From Haloplanus salinarum (GTDB taxonomy: Archaea; Halobacteriota; Halobacteria; Halobacteriales; Haloferacaceae): a DNA stretch of 64,000 bases. Below, piece by piece: positions 1-15,333 of this stretch. The notes below the pieces were generated by a model. The model had not been told where the DNA came from. It saw only the letters and a list, made by a program, of their open reading frames with translations, and made no database searches. Numbering within the stretch: the stretch's first letter is position 1; each line of letters starts with the position of its first letter. The translations under genes were made by a program, and so were the position numbers. The stretch is from positions 2,236,987 to 2,300,986 of the forward strand of contig NZ_CP101823.1 in NCBI RefSeq assembly GCF_024498175.1. The letters are read 5' to 3'.

Positions 1-1
1 C

Positions 2-1465: not shown

Positions 1466-1620
1466 GAGCTTTTGCGATTTTCGTCGGACAGAGGGGACCC
1501 CCCTCCCCCCTGGTATAACCCCATTTGGGGTGTCAGTGTGTCCCCACCCACAGTAATTCTAAATCAAGCGGTAGGGGGAGGGAGGGGGTGGCCCTGTCCG
1601 TCGAGAACTGCAAAAGCCTC
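1466..1620. repeat. Nested inverted repeats: outer gcttttgc/gcaaaagc (1469-1476/1611-1618), inner imperfect ~20-nt G/C-tract pair (1491-1513/1571-1596), central mini-palindromes ccccatttgggg and ggggtgtcagtgtgtcccc
   Basis: read directly from sequence; lies immediately 3' of ORF1 stop (1463-1465) with T-rich run 1469-1490. Confidence 0.45.
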
Positions 1621-1861
1621 TGGGTAGGGTGGCTGAGTTCCAGTAGCGATTAGACCGGAGCGCACCTGCTATCAATACCGATAGGTAAACAGCTAATCAC
1701 AGGATAGAGCAGTAATTTCTGATTAAAGATATTTTATACTTCTTCCCACCCTACCACTAAACACGGGAACCCACAGAGCTACTGCTACCGGATTCGGTCC
1801 GGAGCAGAAACCGGTGCTTGGGACACCGGTCCGTGGGCTTCCCGATGGAGGCGAGAAGCCA

Positions 1862-2095
1862 ATGGAATCAACGAACTCGATAGAGGAATCACTGTCGAAC
1901 AGACACCCCGACGCCGAAACCGTCGGTAACCACCTCGTCATCGACAAGACGCAGTGGTGTCCAGGGCCGCATCCTGACCCCCACCGCCGACGAGAGGGCC
2001 AGACCGAGTACCTGGCGCGGTACCTGCGCTGTATCCAGTGTGGGGCCGAGGTACTGAGCGAAGGAGACCTCCCCGAGGAGTGTGATGCGCGATGA
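1862..2095 (+). CDS. small Cys-containing hypothetical protein (start uncertain; ORF 1814..2095)
   Basis: ORF track; CPGPH...CIQCGAE possible metal-binding; AT-rich promoter-like region 1690-1760 upstream. Confidence 0.25.
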   Translation: MESTNSIEESLSNRHPDAETVGNHLVIDKTQWCPGPHPDPHRRREGQTEYLARYLRCIQCGAEVLSEGDLPEECDAR

Positions 2096-2580
2096 AGTTG
2101 TTGGATGCTCAGGTCGACTGGCGCGAAGATGTCGGCAACGACCCTCGGCTGGAGGTGCTCGTCGACGAGATACCCGACCGGTCCGGCCTCCGGTTCGAGC
2201 ACGAGGATGTTCTCTGGGTCGCCATCGACAACGGATACGTGGAGTATTTCTCCTGGTCTGGTGACGGCAACGATGGTGGCTACAGCGGTCGGTCGTTCGA
2301 GATTACTACCGTCGACGGCGAGCAGGTCACGCTCAAAGGGCCGTGGAGTTCCCGTGCCGGATGCGTGAACAAGCGGAGCTTCGGGCCGGTCGTCGATGTG
2401 CGGATGGCGACCGACCCCGACGTGCTCGAACGGGGCTACACGTTCCGGACGGGTACCCTGACGCTCTCGGCGGTGAAGCAGGCCATCGACCTCACCGACG
2501 AGGATGCTCACCTGGAGCGCGTCATCAAGTTCGATTCGAACGAGCCCTACTGGCGTCCCGTTCGGGGAGGTGACGACTGA
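2092..2580 (+). CDS. hypothetical protein, 162 aa
   Basis: ORF track; ATGA overlap with upstream ORF; part of a co-directional overlapping gene array. Confidence 0.45.
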   Translation: MKLLDAQVDWREDVGNDPRLEVLVDEIPDRSGLRFEHEDVLWVAIDNGYVEYFSWSGDGNDGGYSGRSFEITTVDGEQVTLKGPWSSRAGCVNKRSFGPVVDVRMATDPDVLERGYTFRTGTLTLSAVKQAIDLTDEDAHLERVIKFDSNEPYWRPVRGGDD

Positions 2581-2747
2581 TGGCGACGTGTCGGGAACTC
2601 GGGTGCAACCGCGAGGCGACTCACACAGTCGTCGTCAACGCGCCAGGTCGTGGATACGCCGAAGACCCCTGCTGTACCGAGCACGCCGAGAAGGCACGCG
2701 GTCGGGTCTACGTTCGAGACGTGCGACAGCGAGGAGGTGAGGCCTGA
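2580..2747 (+). CDS. small Cys/His-rich putative zinc-binding protein (55 aa, below ORF-track cutoff)
   Basis: manual translation MATCRELGCNREATH...DPCCTEHAEKARG; TGATG overlap with preceding stop and ATGA-type overlap with next start. Confidence 0.35.
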   Translation: MATCRELGCNREATHTVVVNAPGRGYAEDPCCTEHAEKARGRVYVRDVRQRGGEA

Positions 2748-3121
2748 TGTCGTCGGTCCAACCCGACATCGAGCCACGCACCCTCCGGGCCGCCACCGAG
2801 CATATGACAGTCATCGAGGAAGCGCGGTCCCTGTTCTCTGTCACGACCCAGAGCGGCTCCGAGTACACCGTCGACCTCCGTGAGCCCGCGTGTACGTGCC
2901 CGGACTTCGAGTACCGAGACGGCGTCGAGGAGTGCAAGCACATCCGACGGGTTCGCATCGAGGTGGGCCAAGTCGACACCGATGCGCTCGAAACCCGAAT
3001 CGCGGAGACGGCTGACGACCTCGACGCGAACGCCGCCGACCTCGAACAGCAGGCCAAAGAACTCGCGGAGACCGCCGAGGAACTCCGTGATGCGCTGGAC
3101 CGGCTGGAGGAGGTGGCCTAA
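2747..3121 (+). CDS. SWIM-type zinc finger protein
   Basis: CTCPDFEYRDGVEECKHIRRV matches the CxC...CxH SWIM pattern; ORF track. Confidence 0.5.
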   Translation: MSSVQPDIEPRTLRAATEHMTVIEEARSLFSVTTQSGSEYTVDLREPACTCPDFEYRDGVEECKHIRRVRIEVGQVDTDALETRIAETADDLDANAADLEQQAKELAETAEELRDALDRLEEVA

Positions 3122-3522
3122 TGTCGCGCCAACCCCAGGGTTCGACCGGCGGAAACGCCCGTCTACGACCCTCGAACGAAGGGGAACAGTCGAGGGCCAC
3201 GACGGAACACGTCTACCACGGTCGGCGCGACCCGACTGCGCCGGTCGGTCAAGAGTGTACGGTCACCGTCGACGGCGAGCCGTTGGACCTGCGGTACGAC
3301 CTTCTGTCGGCGAGCCCGGCTGGATTCGAGTGGAGCTACGGTGGGAGCGGTCCCGCCCAACTCGCCATCGCGCTTCTGGCCCACGCCTTTGAGGACGAGT
3401 TCGCCGAGCGCCATTACCAGCGATTCAAGCGTGAGGTGGTATCGGAGCTTCCCGAGGAGAGGTGGATACTCCGGAAGCGGAATCTCGATGCGTGGCGTCG
3501 GGAGGTGGTCAGCGATGCTTGA
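3121..3522 (+). CDS. hypothetical protein, 133 aa
   Basis: ORF track; start ATG overlaps the TAA of the previous gene. Confidence 0.45.
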   Translation: MSRQPQGSTGGNARLRPSNEGEQSRATTEHVYHGRRDPTAPVGQECTVTVDGEPLDLRYDLLSASPAGFEWSYGGSGPAQLAIALLAHAFEDEFAERHYQRFKREVVSELPEERWILRKRNLDAWRREVVSDA

Positions 3523-3676
3523 GCGATACCTCCGACTGATGCGCTGGTGGGTGCGCCGCTGGTACGGCGTTGCTCGCTACCTCGGTCGACTTTCTGGTCA
3601 GGAGGAGTACGTCGAGCGAGCCATCGACGTGACGGAGAAGAACTTCGAGCAGATTCTGGAGGGTGACGACGGATGA
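3515..3676 (+). CDS. small Arg/Trp-rich hypothetical protein, 53 aa
   Basis: in-frame ATG at 3515 within ORF 3341..3676; overlaps previous stop by 8 nt. Confidence 0.3.
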   Translation: MLERYLRLMRWWVRRWYGVARYLGRLSGQEEYVERAIDVTEKNFEQILEGDDG

Positions 3677-3975
3677 CCCGTCCCGACCCTGCGGCGGCGA
3701 TGAACGGAGTCGGTACGGGCCACATCTGCGACCGATGCAACCGCCGGATACAGCACGGCGATAAAGCCGGAATGTATGTGACGTGGTACGACGAGGGGGG
3801 ATGGACCCCCCGTAGGATGTGGTGCCTCGACTGCTGTCCCAAAGAGGTCGACCCCGGTACTGAGGGCGCAGACGAAGCGATACTACTCGGGGTGTTCTTC
3901 GCACATCGGCTGGTGTCGGTAACCGTCAGAGACAGGAGTCTTCCGAATCAGGAAGTAAATAATGAGACGGGTTGA
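3673..3975 (+). CDS. Cys-containing hypothetical protein, 100 aa (CDRCNRR...CLDCC)
   Basis: ORF track; ATGA overlap with upstream gene. Confidence 0.4.
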   Translation: MTRPDPAAAMNGVGTGHICDRCNRRIQHGDKAGMYVTWYDEGGWTPRRMWCLDCCPKEVDPGTEGADEAILLGVFFAHRLVSVTVRDRSLPNQEVNNETG

Positions 3976-4192
3976 AACAGGCGACAGTGTTCGGGTCGAC
4001 ATCCCCGACCAGTCGGACCCGGACTACGAGCGGTTCCACGGGCGGTACGGGGAAGTCGTAGATGTGCTGGAAGACGACGTAGGTCGTGAGACGGGCGACC
4101 AGCGTGATTCGCACCTGTTCACCGTCGAGTTCGAGGATGGAACCACCCACGGCTTTCGGTGGCGAGACCTCCGTCCGGCACCAGAGGAGTAA
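3962..4192 (+). CDS. small acidic hypothetical protein, 76 aa
   Basis: ORF track; overlaps neighbours. Confidence 0.4.
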   Translation: MRRVETGDSVRVDIPDQSDPDYERFHGRYGEVVDVLEDDVGRETGDQRDSHLFTVEFEDGTTHGFRWRDLRPAPEE

Positions 4193-4197
4193 CATCC

Positions 4198-4350
4198 ATG
4201 CCGACAGCCCGGAAAGTCGAGGAGACGTGCCCGCGATGCGACGACGATAGCGACGTGTGGATGTTCGAGAAGCCCGAGGGGTCAGTCACGAAGGAGTGCT
4301 ACACCTGCGAGACGTGCGGGTGCGAGTGGTCTGAAATCATCGACTGCTAA
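4198..4350 (+). CDS. zinc-ribbon protein, ~50 aa
   Basis: CPRCDDD...CYTCETCGC four-Cys ribbon; internal ATG of ORF 4159..4350. Confidence 0.45.
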   Translation: MPTARKVEETCPRCDDDSDVWMFEKPEGSVTKECYTCETCGCEWSEIIDC

Positions 4351-4356
4351 TCTTTC

Positions 4357-4617
4357 TCACTCTCTGTCGAGTGCTTCGAGAAGCAGATTGCCGTTCTCAG
4401 TTAATCGGTAAAAGGTTCGTTGGCGACCTTCAGATTCCCGGTCAGCTACCTCAATCATGCCCTCGCTTTCTAATTCACCCAGCACGTCATAGATGTAGCT
4501 CTGAGTGTAGTTGATGTCGTTCTCTTTGTCGCTGGCAATTGCGTAACCAGTGACCGGCTCATTTTCGCGGATGTAGACGAGGACCTGTACCTTGCGCTCA
4601 TCAACCAGTCCCATCAC
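4357..4617 (-). CDS. winged-helix transcriptional regulator (PadR/ArsR-like)
   Basis: 86 aa; pattern VLVYIRENEPVTGYAIA...YIYDVLGELESEGMIE...RTFYRLTENG typical of wHTH regulators; convergent to the small-gene array. Confidence 0.6.
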   Translation of the reverse strand: MMGLVDERKVQVLVYIRENEPVTGYAIASDKENDINYTQSYIYDVLGELESEGMIEVADRESEGRQRTFYRLTENGNLLLEALDRE

Positions 4618-4851
4618 ACGAGAATACCCGAGGGGTCGAAATAGTCGATATAAGCAAAGTGATAGACCGGTCTAATAGTTAGACTTGTTCAGTAGTTTGA
4701 TATTGTATCCGTCGGATGGACGCCGTATGGAAGTGTGTCTCGTGGAGCAAAAGGACTTGAAACGAGTCCCCGAATCCAAACTGGACACAGAAGCGAACTC
4801 TGAACAGCGAGTTGGACGAACAGTTGGAGCGAAAATCGGGGTTACCCCATA

Positions 4852-5613
4852 ATGTCGGAGGATGGAGGAGTGTCTAATGACGAGTCAGGGGGGCCAGCTA
4901 TCCTGAAAACCATAGGTAAGATTGTATCTTGGGCGTTAGGTTTGTTCCTTCTTCTGTTGAGTCTGGGCGGATTTCAGGATTCAATCCCATTCGGATTCTC
5001 CTTGCTACTATTAGGTCTGTTTCTACTACCCCCGGTACGGAACAGATTCGGAAATCTAATCGACTCCAAGTTTTCCCGTTGGATAGTGAGTGGTATCCTT
5101 ATACTTGGATTTGTTACGATGTTGGTGACTGTCCCGCCGACTGAGGTCAGTGAAAATAATGATGCCTCTGAGGGGATTGAGACATCCTCACCTGGCACTT
5201 CCGCACGATGTTGGATTGTAAATCACCGGAGCGAGATTTCTGAAGCAAGTGAGCAACTGAATCAGGGTACTAATGCTCTGGAAGAGGGAGACGGGTCGAG
5301 GGCACTCATGCACTTAGAGAAGTCGTTCAATCAATATGAGACCCTGAATGAATCGGCACATGAGGCCCCTATTAGAAACGATACACGGGAACAACTGCTT
5401 GAAGGGTACTTTCATGCGGCATTTCAGGGTACAGCCGCTACGTATTCCGGTGTTTATGAGTTGCAAGTAAACGATGATGCTGATGCTGCAAACAGGATGG
5501 CTGAGCGACAAGAACGCCACTTCGAGACGGCGGCGCAGAGGCGGGAAGAGCTCAAGGAAAGCCTCGGGGTGAGTCCTTCGACAGATTTGACTGAAATTAG
5601 TGGGAATTGTTGA
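4852..5613 (+). CDS. membrane protein, N-terminal TM helices plus soluble domain; low GC
   Basis: ORF track; hydrophobic segments in first 90 aa; visibly lower GC than flanks. Confidence 0.5.
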   Translation: MSEDGGVSNDESGGPAILKTIGKIVSWALGLFLLLLSLGGFQDSIPFGFSLLLLGLFLLPPVRNRFGNLIDSKFSRWIVSGILILGFVTMLVTVPPTEVSENNDASEGIETSSPGTSARCWIVNHRSEISEASEQLNQGTNALEEGDGSRALMHLEKSFNQYETLNESAHEAPIRNDTREQLLEGYFHAAFQGTAATYSGVYELQVNDDADAANRMAERQERHFETAAQRREELKESLGVSPSTDLTEISGNC

Positions 5614-5701
5614 GTGGTTAAAAATACAAACTGGAGAGGACGGAGACGGGTGTGTCCATCATCTATTTGTAACTTCCCCAGCGGCATATAAGATACTTCG
5701 A

Positions 5702-8700
5702 ATGAGTCAGGCTACGCTCTCCGACCGACCCTACGTCAACGCGAATCTCTTCTCTGGTCACTACCTGGACGAGCGCGTACAAGAACGCGACGAGTGGGAC
5801 TGTGACGATGACGCCCGCGAAGCGATGGATGACCTCCGGACGCTCTATGAGTTGGAGGGCTCGCTGGTCGAGGGGTACGGCGAGGACGCGCTCATAGATA
5901 ACTGGATAGACGAGGTACTGGACGTACTCGGGTTTGGAACGCAAGAGGAAGTGACGCTCCCCAACGGCGGCGGCTTCGTCGACGAACTCCTCTTCGAGAC
6001 GCCGACCGCTCGCCGGGACGCCGCCGAGGTCTACCTCGGAACCGAAGATACGACCGACCTGTTCGAGCGGGGCGTCGGCATCGTCGAGGCCAAGCAGTGG
6101 GACGCCGCGTTCAACATCCAGTTCAGCGAGCAACGTCCCTACCGCAACGCCTCGCACCAGACCAAGCACTACCTGGAGAACACGCCGCCGAACATCCAGT
6201 GGGGCGTACTCACAAACGGACGGAAGTGGCGGCTCTACGGTACGAACGACTACGAGACGCAGACCTACTACGAGGTCGACCTCCCCGAACTACTCGAACG
6301 GGGCGACCTGGGGGCGTTCAAATACTTCTACGTCTTCTTCCGGCCCGACGCCTTCCACGAGTCCGGCGGCACGACGTTCCTCGACGAAGTGTGGTCCGAG
6401 AGCGAGACGGCGTCACAGGAACTCGGGGAGAACCTGCAAGATAACGTCTTCACCGCACTGCGCGTGCTCGGGCGCGGCTTCGTCGAGACCAACGACGACC
6501 TCGACATCGACCCCGACGACGAGGAGGCCTTGGACGAACTGAAAGAGCAATCGCTCGTCTTCCTCTATCGGCTGATGTTCGTCCTCTACGCTGAGGCACG
6601 CGGACTCATCCACCCGGAAGGTCAGTCGGCGCAGGACGAGTACGACCAGAACTTCAGCCTCGACGAACTCCGGCTGGACATCCACGACACCATCGGCGAG
6701 GTCGACGAGGGCTTCGAAGACGAGTTCAGCGACTACTCGACGACGATGTGGAGTCGGCTGGAGGACCTGTTCCGGCTCATCGACCAGGGCGAGGAAGACC
6801 TCGGCATCCCCCCGTACAACGGTGGCCTGTTCGACCACGAGGAACACGACTTCCTGACCGACCACGAGGTGAGCAACCAGTACCTCGCCGAGGTCATCTA
6901 CCGACTGTCGACCACGCAGAACGACGAGGGTCGGTACGTCCTCGCCGATTACGCCGACCTCGACACCCGCCACCTTGGGAGCGTCTACGAGGGCCTACTC
7001 GAACACCAGTTCCGCATCGCGCCCGAGCAGTACGCGGCGGTCGCGGAGGACGGTGGCCAGGTCTGGAAGCCCGCCACCGAAGTCAGCGTTGCCGACGCCG
7101 TCGAGACCGTCCCCGAGGGCGGGCTGTACGTCGTCAACGATGAGGGCGAACGCAAGGCCACGGGTGCCTACTACACGCCCGACTACGTGGTGACCTACAT
7201 CGTCGAGGAGACGGTCGGCCCGCTGGTCGAGGAGATACGTGAAGACCTGATAGACCAAGGGTTCGAGCCGGGCACACAGGAGTACATCGGGCCGTTCTTT
7301 CGGCGTGTGACCGACCTTCGGATTCTCGACCCTGCGATGGGGAGCGGTCACTTCCTGACAAAGGCTACTGGCTACCTGTCCGAGCAAGTGATGGCCGAGG
7401 TCCGCGAGGCTGAAGAGGAGTTCGGGGTGGCGTTCGACGAACAGCACATCCGGCGGGAAATCGCCAAAGAGTGCATCTACGGCGTCGACCTGAACGGGAT
7501 GGCCGTCGAACTGGCGAAGCTGTCGATGTGGCTGGAGACGCTGGCGGCCGACCGTCCGCTCGCCTTCCTCGACCACCACTTCAAGCAGGGTAATTCGCTG
7601 GTCGGGTCGGACATTGAGGATATCGAGGAACTGGAATCAGACGCGAGCAACGACGCTGATTCACAGGCGTCCTTGGCCGAGTTCGGCGCGACACGTGAGG
7701 GAACTATCGAGCGCCTGATGGACATTTACTCGGAGTTCCTCGCCATCGAGAACGAGACGGTCGAGGACGTGCGCGAGATGAAGCGCAAGTACGCCGAAAT
7801 CGAGCAGGACGAACTCCGTAAACGGCTCGTGACGATGGCGAACGTTCACACCGCCGAGCGATTCGGTCTTGATGTTCCCGGTGGTGCATACGAGCGAATG
7901 GCAAAGGCGCTGGAAGATGATGAGGAATGGGCGGGCGTTAAAAACACAGATTGGTTCGAAAGCGCACAGGCAACAGCTGGTGAGCAAGATTTCTTCCACT
8001 GGAAACTGGCCTTCCCCGAAGCCTACTATGATGAAGAGGGGTCATTGAGAAACGATGACGGATTTGACGCGGTAGTCGGAAACCCGCCGTATGTTAAGAT
8101 ACAAAACTTACCAGACACCGATAAAGAATATTACGGAAATGTCTATAATGTAGCCCGGGAACGCTATGACCTTTACAATTTATTCGTTGAAAGAGCGGAG
8201 GCCCTTTCTAATAATCGCGTTGGGTTGATTTTACCAAATAAATTCTTTGAGGCACGCGCGGGTTCGCCGCTCAGGCAACATCTTGAGGACATACAGAGTG
8301 TTGAAAAGATAGCTGATTTTAAACAAAACCAGGTGTTTGATGGGGCAACCACCTATACGTGTCTCCTGTTCTTATCGCAGTCTCATCAATCAACAATAAT
8401 TGACTATGGTGCAGTTTCAGACGACCCAGAAACCAATCTCACAGAAGTTGAGTGGGTAGAGATAGACTTGGATAATGAAGGAGAAAAGTGGAATTTAACT
8501 GGAGAAGAAGAAAAGAAGATACTCAACAAGATTGAAAGTACAGGAATTGGATTTGACGAAATCACCGACCAGATTCTGGTAGGGGTTCAGACCAGTGCTA
8601 ACGATGTTTTCGTCTTGGAAGAGTGTGAGTATGATGGTGATTATGTTGAAGGGTATTCATCAGCAGTAGGTGAGCGTGTCTCCGTTGAGACCAGTATTAC

Positions 8701-9868
8701 GAAACCGTTTGTAACGGATAGTGGGGTTTCTCGCTACACTCCACCGGAAACCGATTCTTGTCTCATCTATCCGTATCTTGATGATGGTACGATAATGCCA
8801 GAGAATGAGCTTGAGAATAGGTATCCCGAATGTTTTGACTACCTCTTGGACAACAAGGAGGACCTCAGCGAACGTGGTAGCGAGAATCAGGTATTCGAGA
8901 CGTGGTACGCTCATTGGTGTCCAAGACATCCTGCAAAGTTTGAACGGCTGAAAATAATGATTTCTCAGGTCGTCAAACAAGGGGAATCGACTTATGATTC
9001 GCAGGGGGATGTCTTCTTTTCCAGTACAGTCTATAGTCCAATCCTTGCGGAGACGTATAGGGATGTTGAGCTTGGATTATTAGGATTATTGAACTCTTCG
9101 CTCGTCTGGTACTATATCACTCAAACAGGAACTGTGCTACGAGGAGGTTACTACCGATACAAAACAGAATACTTAGAACCGGTTGGTATACCAGTTGACA
9201 GTTTTGACAGTAGTATCGAACAACATGTAGAGAATCTAATGGAATATACTGGTGAGCGTGTGAGAATAAACATGAATCTCACTGATTATCTTGGCAACTA
9301 CTCTGACGGACCGGACCTCACAACCGTTGGAAGATATAATCCGCCAGAGGGTGTGGGAGATTCGACGTTAGACGCTACTAACGAGGACTACGAAAATCTT
9401 CGTATCGGTGAAGTCGTCTGCGAAAGGAAGAATGAGACTACCGTCGTCATCCACGCTACGGCGCGCTACAAGCCCGACGACGAGGCCACCCACGAGACCG
9501 ACCAGTGGGGCTACACAGAGACCGAGCCGATGCCAGCAATACGACTGACTGACCTCTCAGAGACCGAGGCCGACCTCGTGGAGGCGTTCGTGCCGGTCGC
9601 CGTCGAGGAGGCCGGTGGGTTCGCAGGATTCCGTGAGACGGCGACGAAGACGAACTCGCTGGTCGACCGACTGGAGGCCATCACGCTCCCCGACCCCGAC
9701 GGCGTGGCCGACGACCTCGAACGGTACCGGGACGCCGTCGAGCGAGCGGAGGAACTCGACAAGAAAATTCAGCGTACCGATGACCTGATTGATGAAATCG
9801 TCTACGACCTCTACGGGCTGACTGACGAGGAAATCGAAATCGTCGAGGAAGCCATCGCGGATGACTGA
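5702..9868 (+). CDS. Type IIL (MmeI-family) restriction-modification enzyme: N-terminal PD-ExK nuclease, gamma-class N6-adenine methyltransferase, C-terminal specificity region
   Basis: FVDELLFE...GIVEAKQ (D..ExK as in MmeI), QWGVLTNGRKWRLY, PYNGGLFDHEEH, GAYYTPDYVV, DPAMGSGHFL (SAM motif I), VVGNPPYV (motif IV); start reset to ATG 5702 (MSQATLSDRPYVNANLF); TATA-like catataag ~15 nt upstream. Confidence 0.8.
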   Translation: MSQATLSDRPYVNANLFSGHYLDERVQERDEWDCDDDAREAMDDLRTLYELEGSLVEGYGEDALIDNWIDEVLDVLGFGTQEEVTLPNGGGFVDELLFETPTARRDAAEVYLGTEDTTDLFERGVGIVEAKQWDAAFNIQFSEQRPYRNASHQTKHYLENTPPNIQWGVLTNGRKWRLYGTNDYETQTYYEVDLPELLERGDLGAFKYFYVFFRPDAFHESGGTTFLDEVWSESETASQELGENLQDNVFTALRVLGRGFVETNDDLDIDPDDEEALDELKEQSLVFLYRLMFVLYAEARGLIHPEGQSAQDEYDQNFSLDELRLDIHDTIGEVDEGFEDEFSDYSTTMWSRLEDLFRLIDQGEEDLGIPPYNGGLFDHEEHDFLTDHEVSNQYLAEVIYRLSTTQNDEGRYVLADYADLDTRHLGSVYEGLLEHQFRIAPEQYAAVAEDGGQVWKPATEVSVADAVETVPEGGLYVVNDEGERKATGAYYTPDYVVTYIVEETVGPLVEEIREDLIDQGFEPGTQEYIGPFFRRVTDLRILDPAMGSGHFLTKATGYLSEQVMAEVREAEEEFGVAFDEQHIRREIAKECIYGVDLNGMAVELAKLSMWLETLAADRPLAFLDHHFKQGNSLVGSDIEDIEELESDASNDADSQASLAEFGATREGTIERLMDIYSEFLAIENETVEDVREMKRKYAEIEQDELRKRLVTMANVHTAERFGLDVPGGAYERMAKALEDDEEWAGVKNTDWFESAQATAGEQDFFHWKLAFPEAYYDEEGSLRNDDGFDAVVGNPPYVKIQNLPDTDKEYYGNVYNVARERYDLYNLFVERAEALSNNRVGLILPNKFFEARAGSPLRQHLEDIQSVEKIADFKQNQVFDGATTYTCLLFLSQSHQSTIIDYGAVSDDPETNLTEVEWVEIDLDNEGEKWNLTGEEEKKILNKIESTGIGFDEITDQILVGVQTSANDVFVLEECEYDGDYVEGYSSAVGERVSVETSITKPFVTDSGVSRYTPPETDSCLIYPYLDDGTIMPENELENRYPECFDYLLDNKEDLSERGSENQVFETWYAHWCPRHPAKFERLKIMISQVVKQGESTYDSQGDVFFSSTVYSPILAETYRDVELGLLGLLNSSLVWYYITQTGTVLRGGYYRYKTEYLEPVGIPVDSFDSSIEQHVENLMEYTGERVRINMNLTDYLGNYSDGPDLTTVGRYNPPEGVGDSTLDATNEDYENLRIGEVVCERKNETTVVIHATARYKPDDEATHETDQWGYTETEPMPAIRLTDLSETEADLVEAFVPVAVEEAGGFAGFRETATKTNSLVDRLEAITLPDPDGVADDLERYRDAVERAEELDKKIQRTDDLIDEIVYDLYGLTDEEIEIVEEAIADD

Positions 9869-10571
9869 GAGCCGACTCGACGAGTTCAACCCTGTCGCCG
9901 AGCGCGTTCGCCAACAGCTTCGCACGTTCCCGCTCAAGTTCAGGGAGTTGGGCGAGGGCGGAAAGCTCAGTCTCATTCTCACCGACGACGAGACCACGGC
10001 CCTCCCTGGACCCTACGTCGGCCAGCAACCGGAGGTATTCACCGAACAGTATCTGATTGAGCCGGTTCTGCACGGCTTGGGGTACACCAATCCTGCATCG
10101 ACCGAGTACGACGGGACCGGTCCGCATTTCGTTCGCAGACCGACGACGTTCCGACACGTCGAAAGCAAACGTCCGGATTATTTGCTGAAACAGGTCGACC
10201 CCACGCTGGTCTGTATCCTCGAAGCCAAGGCCGCGAACAAGGAGCAGAAGACGAGGCGAGCGGCGACCAGCGACATCCGCGAGTATATCGAAGTGAACGC
10301 CTTCTGCAAGTACCTTCGAGAGATGGCGCACGAGCAGATGGTAGCCATCGGCACAGATGGACTCCGGTGGACCCTGTGGCGGTCACACCTACACGAGGAC
10401 ACGCAGGGGCAAGTCTGTCGGGTCGACCTTACGGAGGTGCTTCGAGCCATATCGAGACGGCACGACGTAATCGAGGGACAGACGGACTGGAGTGCAAACG
10501 ATGTACGGAATCGAATCGAGGAGTTCGTCGACCACTTCGCGGCGGCTCGGCTTCCGGGTGTGATTGAGTAG
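9861..10571 (+). CDS. HSDR_N-like (type I R-subunit N-terminal) PD-(D/E)xK domain protein
   Basis: RPDYLLKQVDPTLVCILEAKAANKE matches the pDyvL...viEaK core; ATGA... start overlaps the stop of the RM gene (translational coupling). Confidence 0.5.
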   Translation: MTESRLDEFNPVAERVRQQLRTFPLKFRELGEGGKLSLILTDDETTALPGPYVGQQPEVFTEQYLIEPVLHGLGYTNPASTEYDGTGPHFVRRPTTFRHVESKRPDYLLKQVDPTLVCILEAKAANKEQKTRRAATSDIREYIEVNAFCKYLREMAHEQMVAIGTDGLRWTLWRSHLHEDTQGQVCRVDLTEVLRAISRRHDVIEGQTDWSANDVRNRIEEFVDHFAAARLPGVIE

Positions 10572-10630
10572 CGGCTGAACCGACCGCGCCGAGGATGGGC
10601 TGGCTACGGTGACAGCCTACGCTGTGAACC

Positions 10631-10695
10631 GTGTGTATGTACGTACGTGTGTTGGCGGTACGGAGTCGAGTATTTTGTTGTTTCTGAGAGGACTC
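10631..10695 (+). repeat. copy 1 of a ~60-nt intergenic element (gtgtgtatgtacg...ttggcggtacggagtcgagtattttgttgtttctgagaggactc)
   Basis: about 37/44 identity to copy at 13463-13519 in the same orientation; both ~100-140 nt upstream of + strand start codons. Confidence 0.5.
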
Positions 10696-10831
10696 TGCTA
10701 TCAACCCCGTCTGCTCGTTGTCCGGTGGTTGTCCGAATTGAAGAGTGGTACACGAGCAATAATCCTCTGGCCCCGTTAGCTTAGACTTGAGACTAAGTAC
10801 AGGATAAGTTTTAACACCCTGTGGATAGATA

Positions 10832-11299
10832 GTGGTAGATATGGCGCGAAGCATCAAGCTGGCCGACGAACTGTACCAAGAGCTCGGTCGCTACGGTAAC
10901 CGAGATGAATCGTGGAATGACGTGGTCGCTCGTGTGCTCGCTCACGTCAACGAGGAGGCGGCGCTTGAGGACCGAGACACCCGTGAAACGACGCATAGGG
11001 GAAAGTCGGAGAGTTCCGGAAAATCGGGCCTTGAGAAGTTACCGGATGGGACGGTCGTTCGCCATTCGTATTCCCGTGGCGATTACGGTGGACAGTCAGT
11101 CGAGGCGACCGTTGTGGGTGACCAACTTTCGGTCGAGGGGGATACCCAGGAAACACGAAGTCCAACTGGTGCCGCCAGGGTGGCTGATAAAAAGTTGCGT
11201 GGCGACGACGCACGGGGCGAAGGCTACAACGGCTGGACCTGGTGGACGTATCAGAACGAAAGAGGCGAATGGCGGCCAATTCAGGAGCTTTCGGAGTGA
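10832..11299 (+). CDS. RHH (ribbon-helix-helix) domain fused to a conserved Trp-rich C-terminal domain
   Basis: N-terminus RSIKLADELYQELGRYGN...WNDVVARVL fits the RHH beta-strand/helix pattern; C-terminus GWTWWTYQNERGEWRPIQEL paralogous to the next gene. Confidence 0.5.
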   Translation: MVDMARSIKLADELYQELGRYGNRDESWNDVVARVLAHVNEEAALEDRDTRETTHRGKSESSGKSGLEKLPDGTVVRHSYSRGDYGGQSVEATVVGDQLSVEGDTQETRSPTGAARVADKKLRGDDARGEGYNGWTWWTYQNERGEWRPIQELSE

Positions 11300-11304
11300 T
11301 ACCG

Positions 11305-11643
11305 ATGAAAGAAAAAATGCCGCCACATCTCAATTCGAAGCTCGCACAGTTAGACAACGGTACGACTCTCCGTCACGTTTACAGGCGTGGGGAGTACCGA
11401 GACGAGGAGGTGACCGCCCACGTCAAAGATGAGCGGATTAGCGTACCGGGTGATTCTGGCCCTGACGATTCAGAATTAACGACGCGAACCCCATCCGGTG
11501 CCGCCCGCGAGGCTGACCGATTCCACAGGGGAGCCGACCCTCGGGACGACCCCTACGGCTACAGCGGTTGGGACTGGTGGGAATACAAAAACGAAGACGA
11601 CGAATGGGTACCTATCAGAGAACTTCCCGACTGGAAGTCGTAG
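11305..11643 (+). CDS. paralog of the C-terminal Trp-rich domain of the preceding gene (no RHH)
   Basis: YRRGEY...SPTGAAREAD...GWDWWEYKNEDDEWVPIREL aligns with the upstream protein; start taken at MKEKMPP (internal ATG of ORF 11242..11643). Confidence 0.5.
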   Translation: MKEKMPPHLNSKLAQLDNGTTLRHVYRRGEYRDEEVTAHVKDERISVPGDSGPDDSELTTRTPSGAAREADRFHRGADPRDDPYGYSGWDWWEYKNEDDEWVPIRELPDWKS

Positions 11644-11878
11644 TGCGAAGTGAACGGCTGTAACTGCTTTCCCGTCATGGCTCGATAGAAGTCTCGAATC
11701 GACAGTAATCACCAACTCCGACGTATTAGATTCCTATACGTGATGGTTGGCGATTCTACTTTGGAAGACGCGTTATTGGGTACTACAATAACGGCTGTTC
11801 GAAAATAGACGTAGTCTATCAATTGGACAGCTACTACGTGGGGGAAACGACTAATCCGTATGCTTCCGGAGTACTGAT

Positions 11879-12592
11879 ATGACCAGACGCCAGGACCTCG
11901 ACCGATTCTACTCTCTGCTCGACGACCTGGAGGCGACAGTCGGTGGCAAGAGACGGCTTGGAAACTGTGACGGTCGAATGAACTGGCCCGACCGCGGCAT
12001 TTACTTCTTCTTTCACCCAGACGAAACCCGCGAGTCCAGTGACCAGCTACGAGTAACTCGTATCGGTACCCATGCGGTCTCGGAAGGAAGCAGTACGTCG
12101 CTCTGGGACCGGCTACGAACGCATCGAGGGGCACAACGCGGTACCTACGAAGGCGGCGGCAACCACCGCGGCTCCGTCTTCAGGAAGCGCGTCGGGGAGG
12201 CCCTCATCGAGAAGGATAGCCTCGAAGAGCAGTATCCTGAGTGGGGCGTCGGCTCAAGTGCTGGACGGGAGTTGCGGTTAGATGAACTGGAGATGGAGCG
12301 ACGGGTGAGCGAGTACGTCCGCGATTTACCGTATCTCTGGGTCGACATCGACGACGAACCGAGTCCGAACAGCGACCGCGCCTACATCGAGCGAAACGCG
12401 ATTGCGCTGGTGAGCAACTACGGCAAGGAATCTATCGACTCCCGCCGCGAGGAATGGCTCGGGCACTACAGTCCGGTCACGGACATCGAGCAGTCCGGTC
12501 TGTGGAACATCAACCATGTCGGGGAAGATTACCAACCCGACTTCTTGGAGACCTTGGAGGGCTACACCGACCGGATGCCGGGATTTGATTAA
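11879..12592 (+). CDS. hypothetical protein, possible GIY-YIG-like nuclease fold
   Basis: GIYFFFHPDE...LRVTRIGTH...R...H...E spacing resembles GIY-(10-15)-YIG-R-H-E; weak assignment. Confidence 0.4.
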   Translation: MTRRQDLDRFYSLLDDLEATVGGKRRLGNCDGRMNWPDRGIYFFFHPDETRESSDQLRVTRIGTHAVSEGSSTSLWDRLRTHRGAQRGTYEGGGNHRGSVFRKRVGEALIEKDSLEEQYPEWGVGSSAGRELRLDELEMERRVSEYVRDLPYLWVDIDDEPSPNSDRAYIERNAIALVSNYGKESIDSRREEWLGHYSPVTDIEQSGLWNINHVGEDYQPDFLETLEGYTDRMPGFD

Positions 12593-13014
12593 ATCCGTTC
12601 GTTGTACCACGCCAGCGTCTTCCCATACTGAAGCCCGTCGGTCGGCGTCTCGACCTGTACCGGCGTCTCTTCGAGGAGCGGGAGTAGCTCATCGTAATAG
12701 TCGCGGCCAGCGTGGAAGACCAGCGTGTTACCCGAGGTGAGTAGCCCTTCCTCTCGTAGCTGGTCGTAGACCGTTTGGGTCCACTCGCGTTTCCTGTCGA
12801 CGGACGCCCCGCTCAGCGTCTCGTCGTAAGGTTCGATAGGTGGGCCATCTGGGTCGAGCAGGTGGTGCTTTGCGGAGAGGATGTACCACGCATCGTGATT
12901 CGCCTCGACGTACTCGCGGGCCTTCCTGAAGAACGCGGACTCCATGTAGAGGTCGGCGGGCTTCGCGGCCTGCTCACGCTTGCTCTTGGTACAGCTTACA
13001 AGCCCAATCTCCAT
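12589..13014 (-). CDS. conserved hypothetical protein (MEIGLVSCTKSKR...DAWYILSAKHHLL family)
   Basis: ORF track; convergent and 4-nt overlapping with the previous gene. Confidence 0.5.
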   Translation of the reverse strand: MEIGLVSCTKSKREQAAKPADLYMESAFFRKAREYVEANHDAWYILSAKHHLLDPDGPPIEPYDETLSGASVDRKREWTQTVYDQLREEGLLTSGNTLVFHAGRDYYDELLPLLEETPVQVETPTDGLQYGKTLAWYNERI

Positions 13015-13027
13015 GACAAATGGACTC

Positions 13028-13408
13028 CTAGTCTTCCTCCGGTTCTGCGTGGGCTCTTGCCGCCTGACTCGGAGACAGTTTTGCTACAGCAACGTCCCCT
13101 TCTTTTTCAATGATATTTCCACCCACTTTTTCAGCCTCGTCGACATCAATAAAGTAGATGTCGCCCTCACCTTCATGCTTAACCGTTATTTCTGTTGAGG
13201 GGTCTTCTTCTTTTACTACTGAATATGCTGTAAGCGCAAGACCCGCAGTCCCAACGACTGCACTATAGATTGCTATCGCAGTTCCTACACCAAGCTCTTC
13301 GCCGCTACGTTCCTCCAGGTCAATATGCAGCTCATCCTCTACCCGGTCAATAATATACTCTTGCTCCTCTTCCACTTTCAATTCAATCTCATAATCTCTA
13401 TTTTCCAT
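13028..13408 (-). CDS. small acidic protein with one hydrophobic helix; low GC
   Basis: ORF track; AIAIYSAVVGTAGLALTAYSVV hydrophobic segment. Confidence 0.4.
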   Translation of the reverse strand: MENRDYEIELKVEEEQEYIIDRVEDELHIDLEERSGEELGVGTAIAIYSAVVGTAGLALTAYSVVKEEDPSTEITVKHEGEGDIYFIDVDEAEKVGGNIIEKEGDVAVAKLSPSQAARAHAEPEED

Positions 13409-13462
13409 AGTGACATGTTTAACAAGACTATTTTAAAAAGAACCGGGGCGGCTCCTGAGTGT

Positions 13463-13519
13463 GTATCTACGGGTCTTGGCGGTACGAAGTTGAGTATTCT
13501 ATTGCTTCTGGGAGGACTT
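13463..13519 (+). repeat. copy 2 of the ~60-nt intergenic element
   Basis: gtgtgtatctacgggtcttggcggtacgaagttgagtattctattgcttctgggaggactt; see copy 1. Confidence 0.5.
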
Positions 13520-13608
13520 CGTTCTCAGCAACTGAGTACGAGTCGGAAAATTGTTGCACCGGAATCCTATAGTCCAACAGTCACCAATAGATATCCAGGC
13601 TATCACAC

Positions 13609-14388
13609 ATGACAACCTCTAACCAGGCTATAGAAGAAGAGCTTGACAGGTTAGAAGAGGATGCCGAGGAAATTGAAACTCTTTATACCGATTTTTTCAA
13701 TAATATCCAAACAAGGGCAAGTGAAATAGGCGGTGGTGGATACTATTGGAATACCCCTTCGGAAGAATTGGAGCAGATTCAGCGTGAGGCACTGCAAAAA
13801 TACGAAGTGTGGTACAATACTGCGCTTCCGCTTGTTACAGATTACATTCCGAGCCGAAGGGATGATTTCGAACACCACTATCAAGAGTTCAAAAACCGCC
13901 TACGGTTAGATAAAAAGGCCCGAAGAGATACGCGCAAGGTTCTGAACGCTCAAAACAGTGATTTTGATTCCCAACGAAGTCTACTCCGTTCTATACCCTC
14001 GAAAATTCGTGTAGAGGAACTCAGAGTTCGAAAGCAAATCTCTCGTGATGTTTCGCAGACAGAACATGACAAGGCAAGAGACCTTTATGAGGAGGGTGAG
14101 ATTCGGGCCAGTGGGGTGATTGCCGGTGTTGCTCTGGAAAGATATCTCCTCATGCGTTGCGAAAACGCCGGAGTTGATATTGATTACAATTATGACGATG
14201 GTATTGATGCACTTGCGCAGAAATTATACGAAGGAAATGAAATCAACAAGAGTCCATACCAACATTTGAAACACCTTTCATCAATTCGTGCAGACTGTGC
14301 CCATGCAAATGAGGAAGACCCGGCTGAAAAGGATGTAAAGCGTCTATTGGAGGATACAGAGGACTACATCCGAGGGAGAAGGATATAA
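13609..14388 (+). CDS. hypothetical coiled-coil protein, low GC, Lys/Glu-rich
   Basis: ORF track; strongly AT-biased codon usage relative to the window. Confidence 0.45.
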   Translation: MTTSNQAIEEELDRLEEDAEEIETLYTDFFNNIQTRASEIGGGGYYWNTPSEELEQIQREALQKYEVWYNTALPLVTDYIPSRRDDFEHHYQEFKNRLRLDKKARRDTRKVLNAQNSDFDSQRSLLRSIPSKIRVEELRVRKQISRDVSQTEHDKARDLYEEGEIRASGVIAGVALERYLLMRCENAGVDIDYNYDDGIDALAQKLYEGNEINKSPYQHLKHLSSIRADCAHANEEDPAEKDVKRLLEDTEDYIRGRRI

Positions 14389-14418
14389 TTCACCGATAGC
14401 ATCAATCGAAACTCACTG

Positions 14419-14880
14419 ATGACCACCTACTGCTTCCGCGTGAAGTTCGAGTACGACCCGACAGAACTGTGGCGCGACATCGTAGTTGGCGCGGACCGCA
14501 CGCTCGACGAGTTCCAAACGGTGCTGAACCGTGCGGTCGGCCTCGACCAAGACCACCTCTGGTTCTTCGGCACTGACCAAGACTACTGGCAAAGCCCTGT
14601 GCAGTACAAACGGCCTGAGGAGTTGGCGCAAGCAGTCCCAACGATGGGCGACGAAGACGAGTACAGTGCCGCTGAGACGACAGTGGGCGAAATGATTCAG
14701 GAACTGAGGCTGCAAGAGCGTGACCGTATCTGCTACCTGTTCGACTACGGCGACGAGTGGCGGTTCTACGCCATCCTGAAGGAGGCCGACAACGATGGAC
14801 CCAGCGACAGCGAGCCGGAGGTAGTCAACGAGAAGGGCGACCCCGTCGACCAGTACTCTCCGCCGGGCGAACGACTGTGA
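14419..14880 (+). CDS. plasmid pRiA4b ORF-3-like family protein
   Basis: ICYLFDYGDEWRFYAILKE matches the YxYDFGDxWxH signature of this family. Confidence 0.6.
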   Translation: MTTYCFRVKFEYDPTELWRDIVVGADRTLDEFQTVLNRAVGLDQDHLWFFGTDQDYWQSPVQYKRPEELAQAVPTMGDEDEYSAAETTVGEMIQELRLQERDRICYLFDYGDEWRFYAILKEADNDGPSDSEPEVVNEKGDPVDQYSPPGERL

Positions 14881-15333
14881 CCGGTTTCTCGCCACGTCCC
14901 GGTAGGTGTCATGGTCACTACGTCCGAGGAGCGCTTGTGTATATTCTGTGTATGATTAAGTGTATTTCTCCGTCCAATCTACCATCACCGGAGGAAGGGC
15001 GGAAGCGCGTTTAGTGGTTGCGGAGCACCCCGCGAGTCCGACCCTCGACTCGCTCTGTCGTGTGACTGTCACCCACACATTTATGAATGATGGCTGACGA
15101 CTTCACCGTGGCCGCGGCCCACCTCCCCCCACTCACGACTGGCATCCCAGTTCGAACGCGACATCGTCGTCGTTCAGGGCCGCGGTTGCGTTTTTGACGT
15201 GTTCGACGTCCAGCCCCTTCCGGCGTTCGATTACGTCCGTCCCGGACGGCATCGACGGCGCCGTCGCTGTGTGGGTGAGTTCGATAAAAGAGACCGCGTC
15301 GGGTGACCGCTTTCGGCGGTCAGTCGTGATCAG

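Follow-up and report, generated by a model that had tools for sequence, protein, structure and literature searches.

Two direct copies of a short intergenic tract

Why does a low-GC island of Haloplanus salinarum hold two direct copies of a short intergenic sequence, in the variable stretch just 3′ of its type IIG restriction-modification (RM) gene? A preliminary description of this locus had proposed that two direct copies of a ~60-nt element bracket a block of orphan genes, and had suggested that they are either a shared regulatory motif or small RNA, or the terminal direct repeats of an inserted cassette. We analyzed the locus within a window of 64 kb, which is the whole stretch of DNA considered here and to which all positions refer. 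The features discussed below are listed in Table 1.

Table 1 Features of the RM-proximal part of the island and the basis on which each was defined.
Feature	Position (nt)	Strand	Basis or remark
Type IIG (MmeI/Eco57I-like) RM gene	5600–9868	+	NCBI start 5702
236-aa gene	9861–10571	+	ATG overlaps RM stop (ATGACTGA)
Copy A of ~70-nt element	10631–10703	+	Gapped alignment; intergenic
31-nt core of copy A (GGCGGTACGGAGTCGAGTATTTTGTTGTTTC)	10654–10684	+	Three-copy comparison
RHH/RAMA gene proximal promoter and likely operator	10780–10840	+	Imperfect palindrome CTTAGACTTGAGACTAAG (10780–10797), then GATAAGTTTTAAC
RHH (VapB-like, weak match) + RAMA-like 152-aa gene	10841–11299	+	Pfam scan
112-aa gene paralogous to the C-terminal domain encoded by the RHH/RAMA gene before it	11305–11643	+	46% identity, E 1e-26; repeat family D2
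PDC-M57 candidate defense module	11843–13029		GIY-YIG 11879–12592 (+), DUF6884 12589–13014 (−)
126-aa acidic gene	13028–13408	−	TATA-like TTTTTAAAAT between its start and copy B
Copy B of ~70-nt element	13459–13527	+	Gapped alignment; intergenic
31-nt core of copy B	13478–13508	+	Three-copy comparison
Proximal promoter (CGGAATCCTATAGTCC...) and 259-aa DUF4145-like gene (13609–14388)	13560–14388	+	Homologous to L019 (78%)
PRiA4_ORF3-family 153-aa gene	14419–14880	+	Last gene before GC climbs to chromosomal level

The repeat search returned a single direct-repeat family for the element (D1, at 10632–10703 and 13456–13527), 72 nt long and 78% identical when aligned without gaps. When a 4-nt indel is allowed (an extra TACG in copy A), the 5′ part GTGTGTAT..TACG is common to both copies. 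The degenerate consensus has exactly two matches in the window (10652–10694 and 13476–13518) and none in 100 dinucleotide shuffles, and blastn-short aligns the copies with 86% identity over 43 nt (E 1.7e-5). The two direct copies that had been described are, on these grounds, real. The longest run of identical nucleotides that they share is 11 nt. The edges of the similarity are sharp, with flanks on both sides scoring no better than shuffles; we thus rejected the idea that copy A is the remnant, with longer degenerate homology, of the whole region upstream of the 259-aa gene.

Copy A follows the 236-aa gene, 60 nt past its stop, and is separated by 138 nt from the ATG at 10841 with which the RHH/RAMA gene begins (by 129 nt from an alternative GTG at 10832). 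Copy B is located where the 126-aa and 259-aa DUF4145-like genes diverge, in an intergenic region of 200 nt, and its end is 82 nt upstream of the 259-aa ATG. With respect to the + strand gene that follows, the two copies are oriented alike. A position some 100–140 nt upstream of a + strand start, as originally given for both, roughly describes copy A, while the distance for copy B is somewhat shorter.

The genes between the copies

The block between the copies is of mixed descent, and the term orphan genes proved wrong for most of it. The RHH/RAMA gene, which has at least 70 homologues, is the first of a two-gene module that is also found 3′ of other RM/helicase systems. This pair occurs without the element in L022–L028, where the element is missing upstream of the RHH homologues, and the possibility that the element belongs to the RHH module was rejected for this reason. 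The promoter region of the RHH/RAMA gene is separate from copy A and downstream of it, and inspection by eye shows related sequence in front of the L022 and L023 homologues. The GIY-YIG and DUF6884 genes match, as a pair, the PADLOC candidate system PDC-M57; the same unit is found in L034 with 80% identity and identical boundaries, again without the element. The one orphan is the 126-aa gene, for which no match was found in a search that covered viral contigs and plasmids only. Judged from its sequence, the bracketed block is a mosaic of a RAMA-domain gene pair, a PDC-M57 pair and one orphan, and not a single cassette.

To the left of copy A, the 236-aa gene has no Pfam match, and a PDY...ILEAK motif, read by eye only, suggests that its product may be a PD-(D/E)XK nuclease. 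This gene is missing from L019, L029 and L034 and has homologues in defense islands on haloarchaeal plasmids. Viral contigs yielded no relatives of the 259-aa, 236-aa or 126-aa proteins, and we found nothing relevant in the literature on PDC-M57 and on Haloplanus salinarum.

Relatives of the locus

The most informative relative is L019, a metagenomic sequence in which the RM gene, a single copy of the element and the 259-aa gene follow one another, and in which ~3.6 kb present in the window is missing. There, the 3′ end of the RM gene (85% identical to 9373–9865) is followed by 91 nt that contain the one copy (nhmmer E 1.2e-5) and then by a 259-aa gene that is 78% identical to that of the window. 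The L019 copy is nearer to copy B than to copy A in every segment, so that copy B is the orthologous copy and copy A the extra one. Copies A and B also have in common a 5′ extension and a 3′ part, both missing in L019, as would fit duplication in the lineage of H. salinarum or in its donor.

The sole part kept in all three known copies (A, B and L019) is a 31-nt core with pairwise identities of 76–86%. In these three sequences, the identity of the core equals or exceeds that of the adjacent coding DNA (78–85%) and is clearly higher than that of the remaining intergenic region. This hints at constraint on the core, although a comparison of three sequences is statistically not decisive.

The indel that separates L019 from the window does not begin at copy A. 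On the left it is bounded by the stop codon of the RM gene (9866–9868), ~760 nt to the left of copy A, and it takes in the 236-aa gene as well. L019 is thus no clean empty (pre-insertion) site, and at least two events are needed to relate the two arrangements. In L018, where an 86%-identical homologue is encoded by a gene that is 81% identical at the DNA level, blastn homology begins only at 13532, just past the element and within 5 nt of its right edge (13527). By eye, the element region in L018 is weakly similar, degenerate at best. The tract as a whole is therefore not strongly constrained across orthologues.

The RM relatives show how variable this position is. The window, L019, L029 and L034 present four different gene contents that start at the RM stop codon or at most 15 nt away, with homology to the window ending at 9865, 9868 and 9853 in the three relatives. 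This pattern marks the position as a recombination hot spot. That the element generally accompanies the RM gene at its 3′ end was ruled out, as it does not follow this gene in L029, L030 or L034. No donor molecule and no intermediate arrangement were found.

Searches for further copies

The element is rare. Within H. salinarum the search covered the 64-kb window, in which nhmmer --max with a two-copy profile found no third copy (the next match, with E 0.4, lies inside an ORF), and no element was found after the last gene (PRiA4_ORF3) or before the RM gene. A scan of 185,579 species-representative genomes with the query TGGCGGTACGNNGTNGAGTAT revealed no true copy; its eight matches are all in unrelated bacteria and all lack the 3′ block. 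The metagenome scan with the three-copy consensus gave two chance matches, inside low-GC coding DNA. Viral contigs gave no matches to the element, and plasmids and phages did not contain it, the sole match there being to the start of the RHH gene. Many dispersed copies upstream of unrelated genes, named beforehand together with a lack of indel polymorphism as what would speak against the proposal, were thus present in none of the collections scanned. As these scans gave chance matches only, the element is no dispersed promoter motif, MITE or known RNA. An IS was rejected together with the first two of these, and the ends of the element carry no inverted repeat of the kind seen in MITEs and IS elements.

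A proposed scar of local recombination

We hold, with about even confidence, that the repeat pair is the scar of local recombination. According to this reading, the element would be a lineage-restricted non-coding tract of ~70 nt that belongs originally to the distal part of the sequence upstream of the 259-aa DUF4145-like gene; copy B and the L019 copy hold this position, and so, judged by eye alone, does a degenerate form in L018. Copy A would be a secondary copy, left by recombination after the operon of the RM and 236-aa genes. Enclosed by the two copies, the RHH/RAMA pair, the PDC-M57 pair and the orphan gene would form a mosaic of modules that move separately and that may have piled up in a hypervariable cargo slot directly 3′ of the type IIG RM gene of an integrated low-GC element. 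The most likely origin would be homologous recombination between two diverged island variants that shared this short tract alone, either by a single-crossover (Campbell-type) event or by unequal exchange, as either of these would duplicate the tract directly at the edges of the acquired DNA. What the sequences show directly is the repeat and its rarity, the relative with one copy, the mosaic block and the lack of a structural or coding signal; we infer both this mechanism and the direction of change, i.e., gain rather than loss. The repeats would then be what recombination left behind and could themselves later serve to delete the block, and the element would be no functional RNA, transposon end or general promoter motif.

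The arrangement can be compared with att repeats, whether produced by Campbell-type homologous "pop-in" or by an integrase. The likeness is considerable: direct copies stand at the edges of accessory DNA, the relative L019 has a single copy without the intervening genes, and exchange between the two copies would delete the block. The likeness is limited in other respects. A near-identical core would be expected of att repeats, whereas the copies here show 78% identity over 72 nt and 86% over 43 nt; neither an integrase nor a tRNA gene is seen; and the insert is a mosaic of modules that are mobile on their own. As for an empty site, L019 has the same right flank (the 259-aa gene), while on the left its copy directly follows the RM stop and the 236-aa gene is missing.

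A possible cis-regulatory element

It could be argued that the core is instead a shared cis-regulatory element, either an upstream site for a transcription factor (e.g. the RHH/RAMA protein or the PadR/F-93-like protein, encoded at 4357–4614, of the island) or a weak second promoter, with TATTYT as TATA box and a transcription start close to where the element ends on its 3′ side. Common control of the DUF4145 gene and the RAMA module would follow. We consider this unlikely, even though several observations fit it. The conservation of the core is not matched in the adjacent non-coding DNA, both copies face the downstream + strand gene, and the AT-richest part, GTATTYT, lies ~25 nt from the 3′ edge of the element, as would be expected between a TATA box and a start. 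In addition, the 259-aa family tends to have a long conserved upstream region, as in L013 and L014, which share ~170 nt there, of a different sequence. Nonetheless, each of the two genes has its own family-conserved proximal TATA region ~30–40 nt before the ATG, downstream of the element, with TATA-like sequences at 10809–10814 and ~13569–13578, and the promoters of the neighboring genes match a TATA box better than TATTYT does. The distances from element to ATG are unequal (see above), neither the RHH homologues examined nor 259-aa homologues of ≤70% identity are preceded by the element, even the 86%-identical homologue L018 has it in degenerate form at best, and no further copy is found in the island. 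The regulatory half of the preliminary description (shared promoter, 5′-UTR motif or small RNA) was not supported, given the differing distances, the missing element at these homologues, the lack of an Rfam match and the lack of a conserved or unusually stable fold. Some probability, albeit small, is left for a cis-regulatory role of the 31-nt core itself.

In standing upstream of genes of an RM cluster that encodes an RHH-type DNA-binding protein, the element resembles the operators of RM controller proteins (C-boxes) and similar regulon motifs. It differs from them in being non-palindromic, in its variable distance to the promoter and in not being consistently conserved upstream of homologous genes, and the RHH gene has its own palindromic operator-like site (Table 1).

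Cassette ends, att sites and integrons

The proposal that the copies are terminal direct repeats of an inserted cassette fared better in part. The scarcity of the element and the L019 indel with its single copy agree with it; what disagrees is the edge of the indel at the RM stop, the occurrence of the mosaic modules elsewhere without the element, the 78% identity and the lack of a recombinase among the genes scanned. The same evidence bears on a more specific form of the proposal, in which the element is an att-like or attC-like target of a recombinase that inserts and excises defense cassettes, a copy bounding each insertion. We regard such a target as quite improbable. In its favor, accessory DNA is bordered here by direct repeats, a single copy without the block is seen in L019, the right edge of the element falls at most 5 nt from the start of L018 homology, and the slot is hypervariable. 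However, the identical core never exceeds 11 nt, no attC-type hairpin is formed, the modules of the block join other sequences elsewhere at other junctions, there is no element downstream of PRiA4_ORF3 or upstream of the RM gene, and the L019 indel has its left edge away from copy A. No integrase or recombinase domain was found in the 14 Pfam-scanned ORFs of 80–14880 or in the precomputed Pfam annotation of called genes at ~1879–22592, a range that does not include the left end of the island, which is outside the window. A tRNA-derived att site was rejected, as the window has no tRNA gene.

Integrons have been reported in Archaea, and, like attC sites, the element is ~60–70 nt long and recurs, pointing the same way, between sets of accessory genes. 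The differences are, however, substantial: here no IntI or attI was found, no imperfect-palindrome hairpin is present and there are two copies only. Integron cassettes are mostly single promoterless ORFs in one orientation, whereas here five genes occupy both strands, at least two of them (RHH/RAMA and 126-aa) with TATA-like upstream sequences.

It is also conceivable, although in our estimate rather unlikely, that the core GGCGGTACGRAGTYGAGTATTYTRTTG is a functional DNA site, either a recombination site for cassette exchange 3′ of the RM gene or an operator that couples unrelated defense modules, and that the duplication was kept for that purpose. If the core were a real recombination or regulatory site, it would offer a handle on the exchange or co-regulation of archaeal defense cargo.

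RNA and coding readings

A small non-coding RNA or hairpin on the + strand would have the stem CGGAGUC/GACUCUG in copy A and ACGAAGUU/GACUUCGU in copy B, with a 23-nt loop. By eye this hairpin is attractive, as one compensatory change (G:C to A:U) keeps the stem between the copies and two further changes give G·U wobbles that are tolerated on the + strand only. It was nonetheless rejected, and an RNA of this kind is very unlikely, since the stem partner is lost in L019 and the fold is thermodynamically undistinctive. Minimum free energies were no better than those of shuffles (z +1.3, +1.3, −0.15 and −0.44), and no stable fold beyond shuffles was found as DNA or RNA on either strand (z −0.6 to +1.3). 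On the + strand the RNAalifold consensus was weak (−5.1 kcal/mol, covariation term positive) and selected a different, G·U-rich helix; on the − strand it had no pairs. Rfam gave no match at the gathering threshold for the whole window and nothing relevant at E up to 10 for both copy regions. A terminator was rejected as well, as short T runs occur in copy A alone and not in copy B or L019, and the terminator scan found nothing there.

That the element is part of a small coding ORF (frame ..GGTESSILLFLRGL.. in copy A, 10609–10779; ..GGTKLSILLLLGGL.. in copy B) deserves almost no credence and was rejected: although A, B and L019 all have one and the same frame open across the element, in which by eye several of the A/B differences are synonymous or conservative, and although in copy B this frame runs to a TGA overlapping the start codon of the 259-aa gene (ATGA at 13609–13612), a start codon common to the copies is missing (the in-frame GTGs of A occur neither in B nor in L019), the peptides are unrelated beyond ~17 residues, A–B scores are similar in all six frames, as expected for DNA-level similarity, and a search of 1.84 billion representative proteins gave as sole match a spurious tandem-repeat protein.

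Assembly of a defense island

The finding mainly documents how one haloarchaeal defense island may have been assembled, with the type IIG RM gene as a fixed anchor and the RAMA pair, PDC-M57 and the DUF4145 gene stacked behind it. To this extent, the locus resembles the cargo hot spots of defense islands, in which systems are shuffled between fixed anchors. The RM gene is common to four relatives whose contents differ wholly past its stop, provirus-like upstream genes are also shared by L029 and L034, and the cargo of the window is defensive or defense-associated (RAMA, PDC-M57, DUF4145). The short duplicated tract would mark one junction in the island, and the element looks like a local scar of gene shuffling and not like a new regulatory RNA or mobile element. 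The locus may serve as a worked example of mosaic island evolution, and the direct-repeat pair can be flagged as able, in principle, to delete the block. To our knowledge, descriptions of such hot spots normally do not include a duplicated 70-nt tract inside the cargo region; the tract duplicated here differs from them as a local detail of one lineage.

The repeated element and its genomic setting

The preliminary description reported two direct copies of one short sequence, and this repeat is genuine: its consensus matches the window exactly twice and never matches in 100 dinucleotide shuffles. Our repeat search of the window returned one direct-repeat family with two 72-nt copies (10632-10703 and 13456-13527), which are 78% identical in an ungapped alignment. 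When a 4-nt indel is allowed (an extra TACG in copy A), the common 5′ part, GTGTGTAT up to TACG, aligns as well, and this gapped alignment gives the element bounds listed below. A 43-nt core is 86% identical between the copies (blastn-short, E 1.7e-5), and the similarity has sharp edges, with local alignments of the flanking sequence scoring no better than shuffles. At its 5′ edge, copy A has a perfect alternating pyrimidine-purine tract, longer than in copy B through duplication of TACG. Sequences of this type can form Z-DNA and are prone to recombination, properties that may matter in a high-salt cytoplasm.

A third copy was not found in the 64-kb window (nhmmer --max, two-copy profile), where the next-best match (E 0.4) lies within an ORF. 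Searching one genome per species (185,579 species) with the 5′ core gave 8 matches, all in unrelated bacteria and none with the 3′ block. Metagenomes, scanned with a consensus built from three copies (A, B and that of the metagenomic contig L019), gave 2 matches, both within low-GC coding sequence, and viral contigs, plasmids and phages yielded no copy. A dispersed element was rejected, as none of these collections, nor the rest of the window, holds a true further copy.

The window is part of the Haloplanus salinarum chromosome (CP184342.1), and a second assembly contains the region as well. Low GC content marks positions 1-15000 as an island, with 44-64% GC per 1-kb window (mostly 52-60%) versus ~61-77% elsewhere in the window. 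Neither a tRNA gene nor an integrase was seen in the window, and the left end of the island falls outside it. Upstream of the restriction-modification (RM) gene, the island carries small provirus-/plasmid-like genes (DUF6166, DUF8139 and a PadR/F-93 winged-helix regulator), which are also found in the metagenomic relatives L029 and L034.

The genes between the copies had been called orphans. The GIY-YIG/DUF6884 pair, however, matches both components of PDC-M57, a PADLOC candidate defence system (E 6e-77 and 1.5e-31). Known families or defence modules thus account for most of these genes. The exception is the 126-aa gene, without a match in viral contigs or plasmids, the sole collections searched for it.

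Features of the island, in window positions
Feature	Position	Strand	Remark
PadR/F-93 winged-helix regulator gene	4357-4614	-	
MmeI/Eco57I-like type IIG RM gene	5600/5702-9868		
236-aa gene	9861-10571		ATG overlaps RM stop, sequence ATGACTGA
Alternating pyrimidine-purine tract	10630-10652		23 nt, CGTGTGTATGTACGTACGTGTGT
Copy A	10631-10703	+	31-nt core 10654-10684
Imperfect palindrome	10780-10797		CTTAGACTTGAGACTAAG
RHH + RAMA-like gene	10841-11299		
C-terminal-domain paralogue of RHH/RAMA gene	11305-11643		46% identity
67-nt non-coding tract	11742-11808		
GIY-YIG gene	11879-12592		
DUF6884 gene	12589-13014	-	convergent with GIY-YIG gene
126-aa gene	13028-13408	-	
Copy B	13459-13527	+	31-nt core 13478-13508
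259-aa gene	13609-14388		homologues named DUF4145-containing in some sources
PRiA4_ORF3 gene	14419-14880		
GTGTAT-rich stretch	14930-14975		TTGTGTATATTCTGTGTATGATTAAGTGTATTTCT

Comparison with relatives

The closest informative arrangement is that of L019, which has the 3′ end of the RM gene, one element copy and then the 259-aa gene. Window 9373-9865 aligns at 85% identity with L019 671-1164, the following 91 nt of L019 hold the single element copy (nhmmer E 1.2e-5), and its 259-aa gene stretch is 78% identical to window 13560-14387. As L019 thus joins the RM gene to the 259-aa gene via 91 nt, window 9866-13559 is an indel of ~3.6-3.7 kb relative to it. The L019 copy is nearer to B than to A in every segment, and, judged by these identities, it is copy B that represents the orthologous tract upstream of the 259-aa gene, with copy A as the extra one. 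A and B have parts in common that are absent from L019, which suggests that a B-like sequence gave rise to A after the split from the L019 lineage, or that A came from a closer donor.

Identity between element copies by segment
Segment	A-B	A-L019	B-L019
5′ extension	74%	45%	58%
31-nt core	84%	76%	86%
3′ part	57%	26%	44%

In L018, whose 259-aa protein is 86% identical, homology to the window begins at 13532, and the sequence at the element position is weakly similar to it by eye. The 259-aa homologues of at most 70% identity, in Haloarcula japonica (L013), Halorussus (L014), L016 and L017, lack the element. About 170 nt upstream of these homologues are common to Haloarcula japonica (L013 7833-8000) and Halorussus (L014 7822-8000), are unrelated to the element and could form the alternative hairpins GCGATTG..CAATCGT and GAGCA..TGCTC. 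The homologue lies near a tRNA-Tyr or tRNA-Phe gene in L013, L014 and L016, with phage-type integrases also nearby in L014 and L016, and this neighbourhood points to integrated elements.

On the 3′ side of other RM/helicase systems, as in Halorubrum lacusprofundi pHLAC01 (L022) and the metagenomic contigs L023-L028, the RHH gene recurs with its 112-aa partner as a conserved two-gene module. The upstream regions of these homologues lack the element and share with the window, by eye, only the proximal palindrome and TATA region (10780-10840). Homologues of the 236-aa gene are found in other defence islands on haloarchaeal plasmids, again without the element. L029 and L030 (RM protein 90% identical in amino acids) are homologous to the window up to the RM stop (9868) and wholly different beyond, while L034 (75%) diverges within ~15 nt of that stop (9853). 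Other cargo follows in L034, and after it a PDC-M57 module (12962-14148, corresponding to window 11843-13029), which is 80% identical, has the same boundaries and lacks the element. The pair behaves as a discrete 1.19-kb module in both contexts; in L034 its GIY-YIG gene is called as two ORFs (125 and 99 aa) and may be a frameshift or pseudogene. Positions 9853-9868, at the RM stop codon, are a recurrent recombination breakpoint, where homology ends at 9865 (L019), 9868 (L029/L030) or 9853 (L034), and the downstream cargo differs in each. Four relatives show four different contents 3′ of the RM stop, and the best description of this region is a hypervariable cargo slot.

The suggestion that the copies are terminal repeats of an inserted cassette should be considered in this light, and it holds in part. 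Many dispersed copies and no indel would have spoken against it; the L019 indel exists, and the searched collections lack dispersed copies. A single cassette with terminal repeats nonetheless does not hold, for four reasons: the bracketed DNA is a mosaic of three or more units, two of which, the RHH pair and PDC-M57, are also seen in other settings; the L019 indel begins on the left at the RM stop codon, ~760 nt before copy A, and takes in the 236-aa gene; neither the Pfam-scanned genes nor the precomputed gene annotation up to ~22.6 kb yielded a recombinase; and the copies share only 78% identity.

Origin of the repeat and alternative explanations

We see about an even chance that the element belongs natively to the distal upstream region of the 259-aa gene, and that copy A came from the addition of modules by recombination. 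Defence modules would have been added between the RM operon and the 259-aa gene, generating copy A, most likely by homologous recombination between two diverged island variants that had only this short tract in common. Whether by a single crossover (Campbell-type) or an unequal exchange, the acquired DNA would end up with the common tract on each side in direct repeat. Recombination in haloarchaea is efficient even when sequences have diverged, and these organisms integrate circular DNA by single crossover. What the analysis shows is that the element is rare, that a relative has one copy, that the block is a mosaic and that structural or coding signal is lacking; the recombination route, and whether DNA was gained or lost, we infer. 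The element would then be an instance of a known feature type, a junction in a mosaic genomic island marked by leftover direct repeats, confined to one lineage and with no evident independent function.

A cis-regulatory core is an unlikely alternative, although the best of those considered. Conservation of the 31-nt core (76-86% among the three copies, versus 78-85% for adjacent coding DNA) favours function, which with three sequences is suggestive only. Both downstream genes, however, have their own proximal TATA-like regions ~30-40 nt before the ATG, TTTTAA in the case of the RHH gene and CCTATAG in that of the 259-aa gene. Relative to these regions the element is more distal, at a spacing that differs between the two genes, and GTATTYT, its stretch richest in AT, makes a less convincing TATA box than the neighbouring genes have; the proposed shared promoter or 5′-UTR motif is thus not borne out. 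A site-specific recombination site is less probable still, given the 78% identity of the copies and the lack of a recombinase in the scanned genes, and we hold it equally doubtful that the 31-nt core truly serves defence cargo as a site of recombination or co-regulation.

The small RNA also proposed earlier is very improbable. By eye, a stem of 7-8 bp closing a 23-nt loop can be drawn for copies A and B, with a single compensatory change between them, but the 3′ partner of the stem is lost in L019. RNAalifold gave a weak G.U-rich alternative on the + strand (-5.1 kcal/mol, positive covariation term) and no structure on the - strand. RNA and DNA folds of the element are no more stable than shuffles, and Rfam holds no match at the gathering threshold or at E up to 10. 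A small ORF can practically be dismissed: one frame is open across all three copies, but it has no conserved start, its peptides are unrelated outside ~17 residues, all six frames score alike between copies, and the sole match of the element peptide among 1.84 billion representative proteins is a spurious tandem-repeat protein. In copy B this frame lies in a long + strand ORF (13325-13612), whose TGA overlaps the 259-aa ATG (ATGA, 13609-13612), which is probably a coincidence, as conserved start and coding signature are lacking.

Additional sequence features

Right behind the last island gene, near the GC-content boundary of the island, the GTGTAT-rich stretch bears a loose likeness to parts of the element (GTGTGTAT, GAGTATTCT), which is not significant by nhmmer. 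The imperfect palindrome directly precedes the TATA-like TTTTAA of the RHH/RAMA gene; sequences related to it (ACTTAGTTACTAAG, CCTTAGTAACCAAG) are found upstream of the homologues in L022 and L023, and it is probably an autoregulatory operator of the RHH protein. The 67-nt non-coding tract is 78% identical to L023 9699-9764. In the window it separates the RAMA paralogue from the PDC-M57 module, and in L023 it has another neighbourhood; it may be a second small mosaic piece or a junction remnant.
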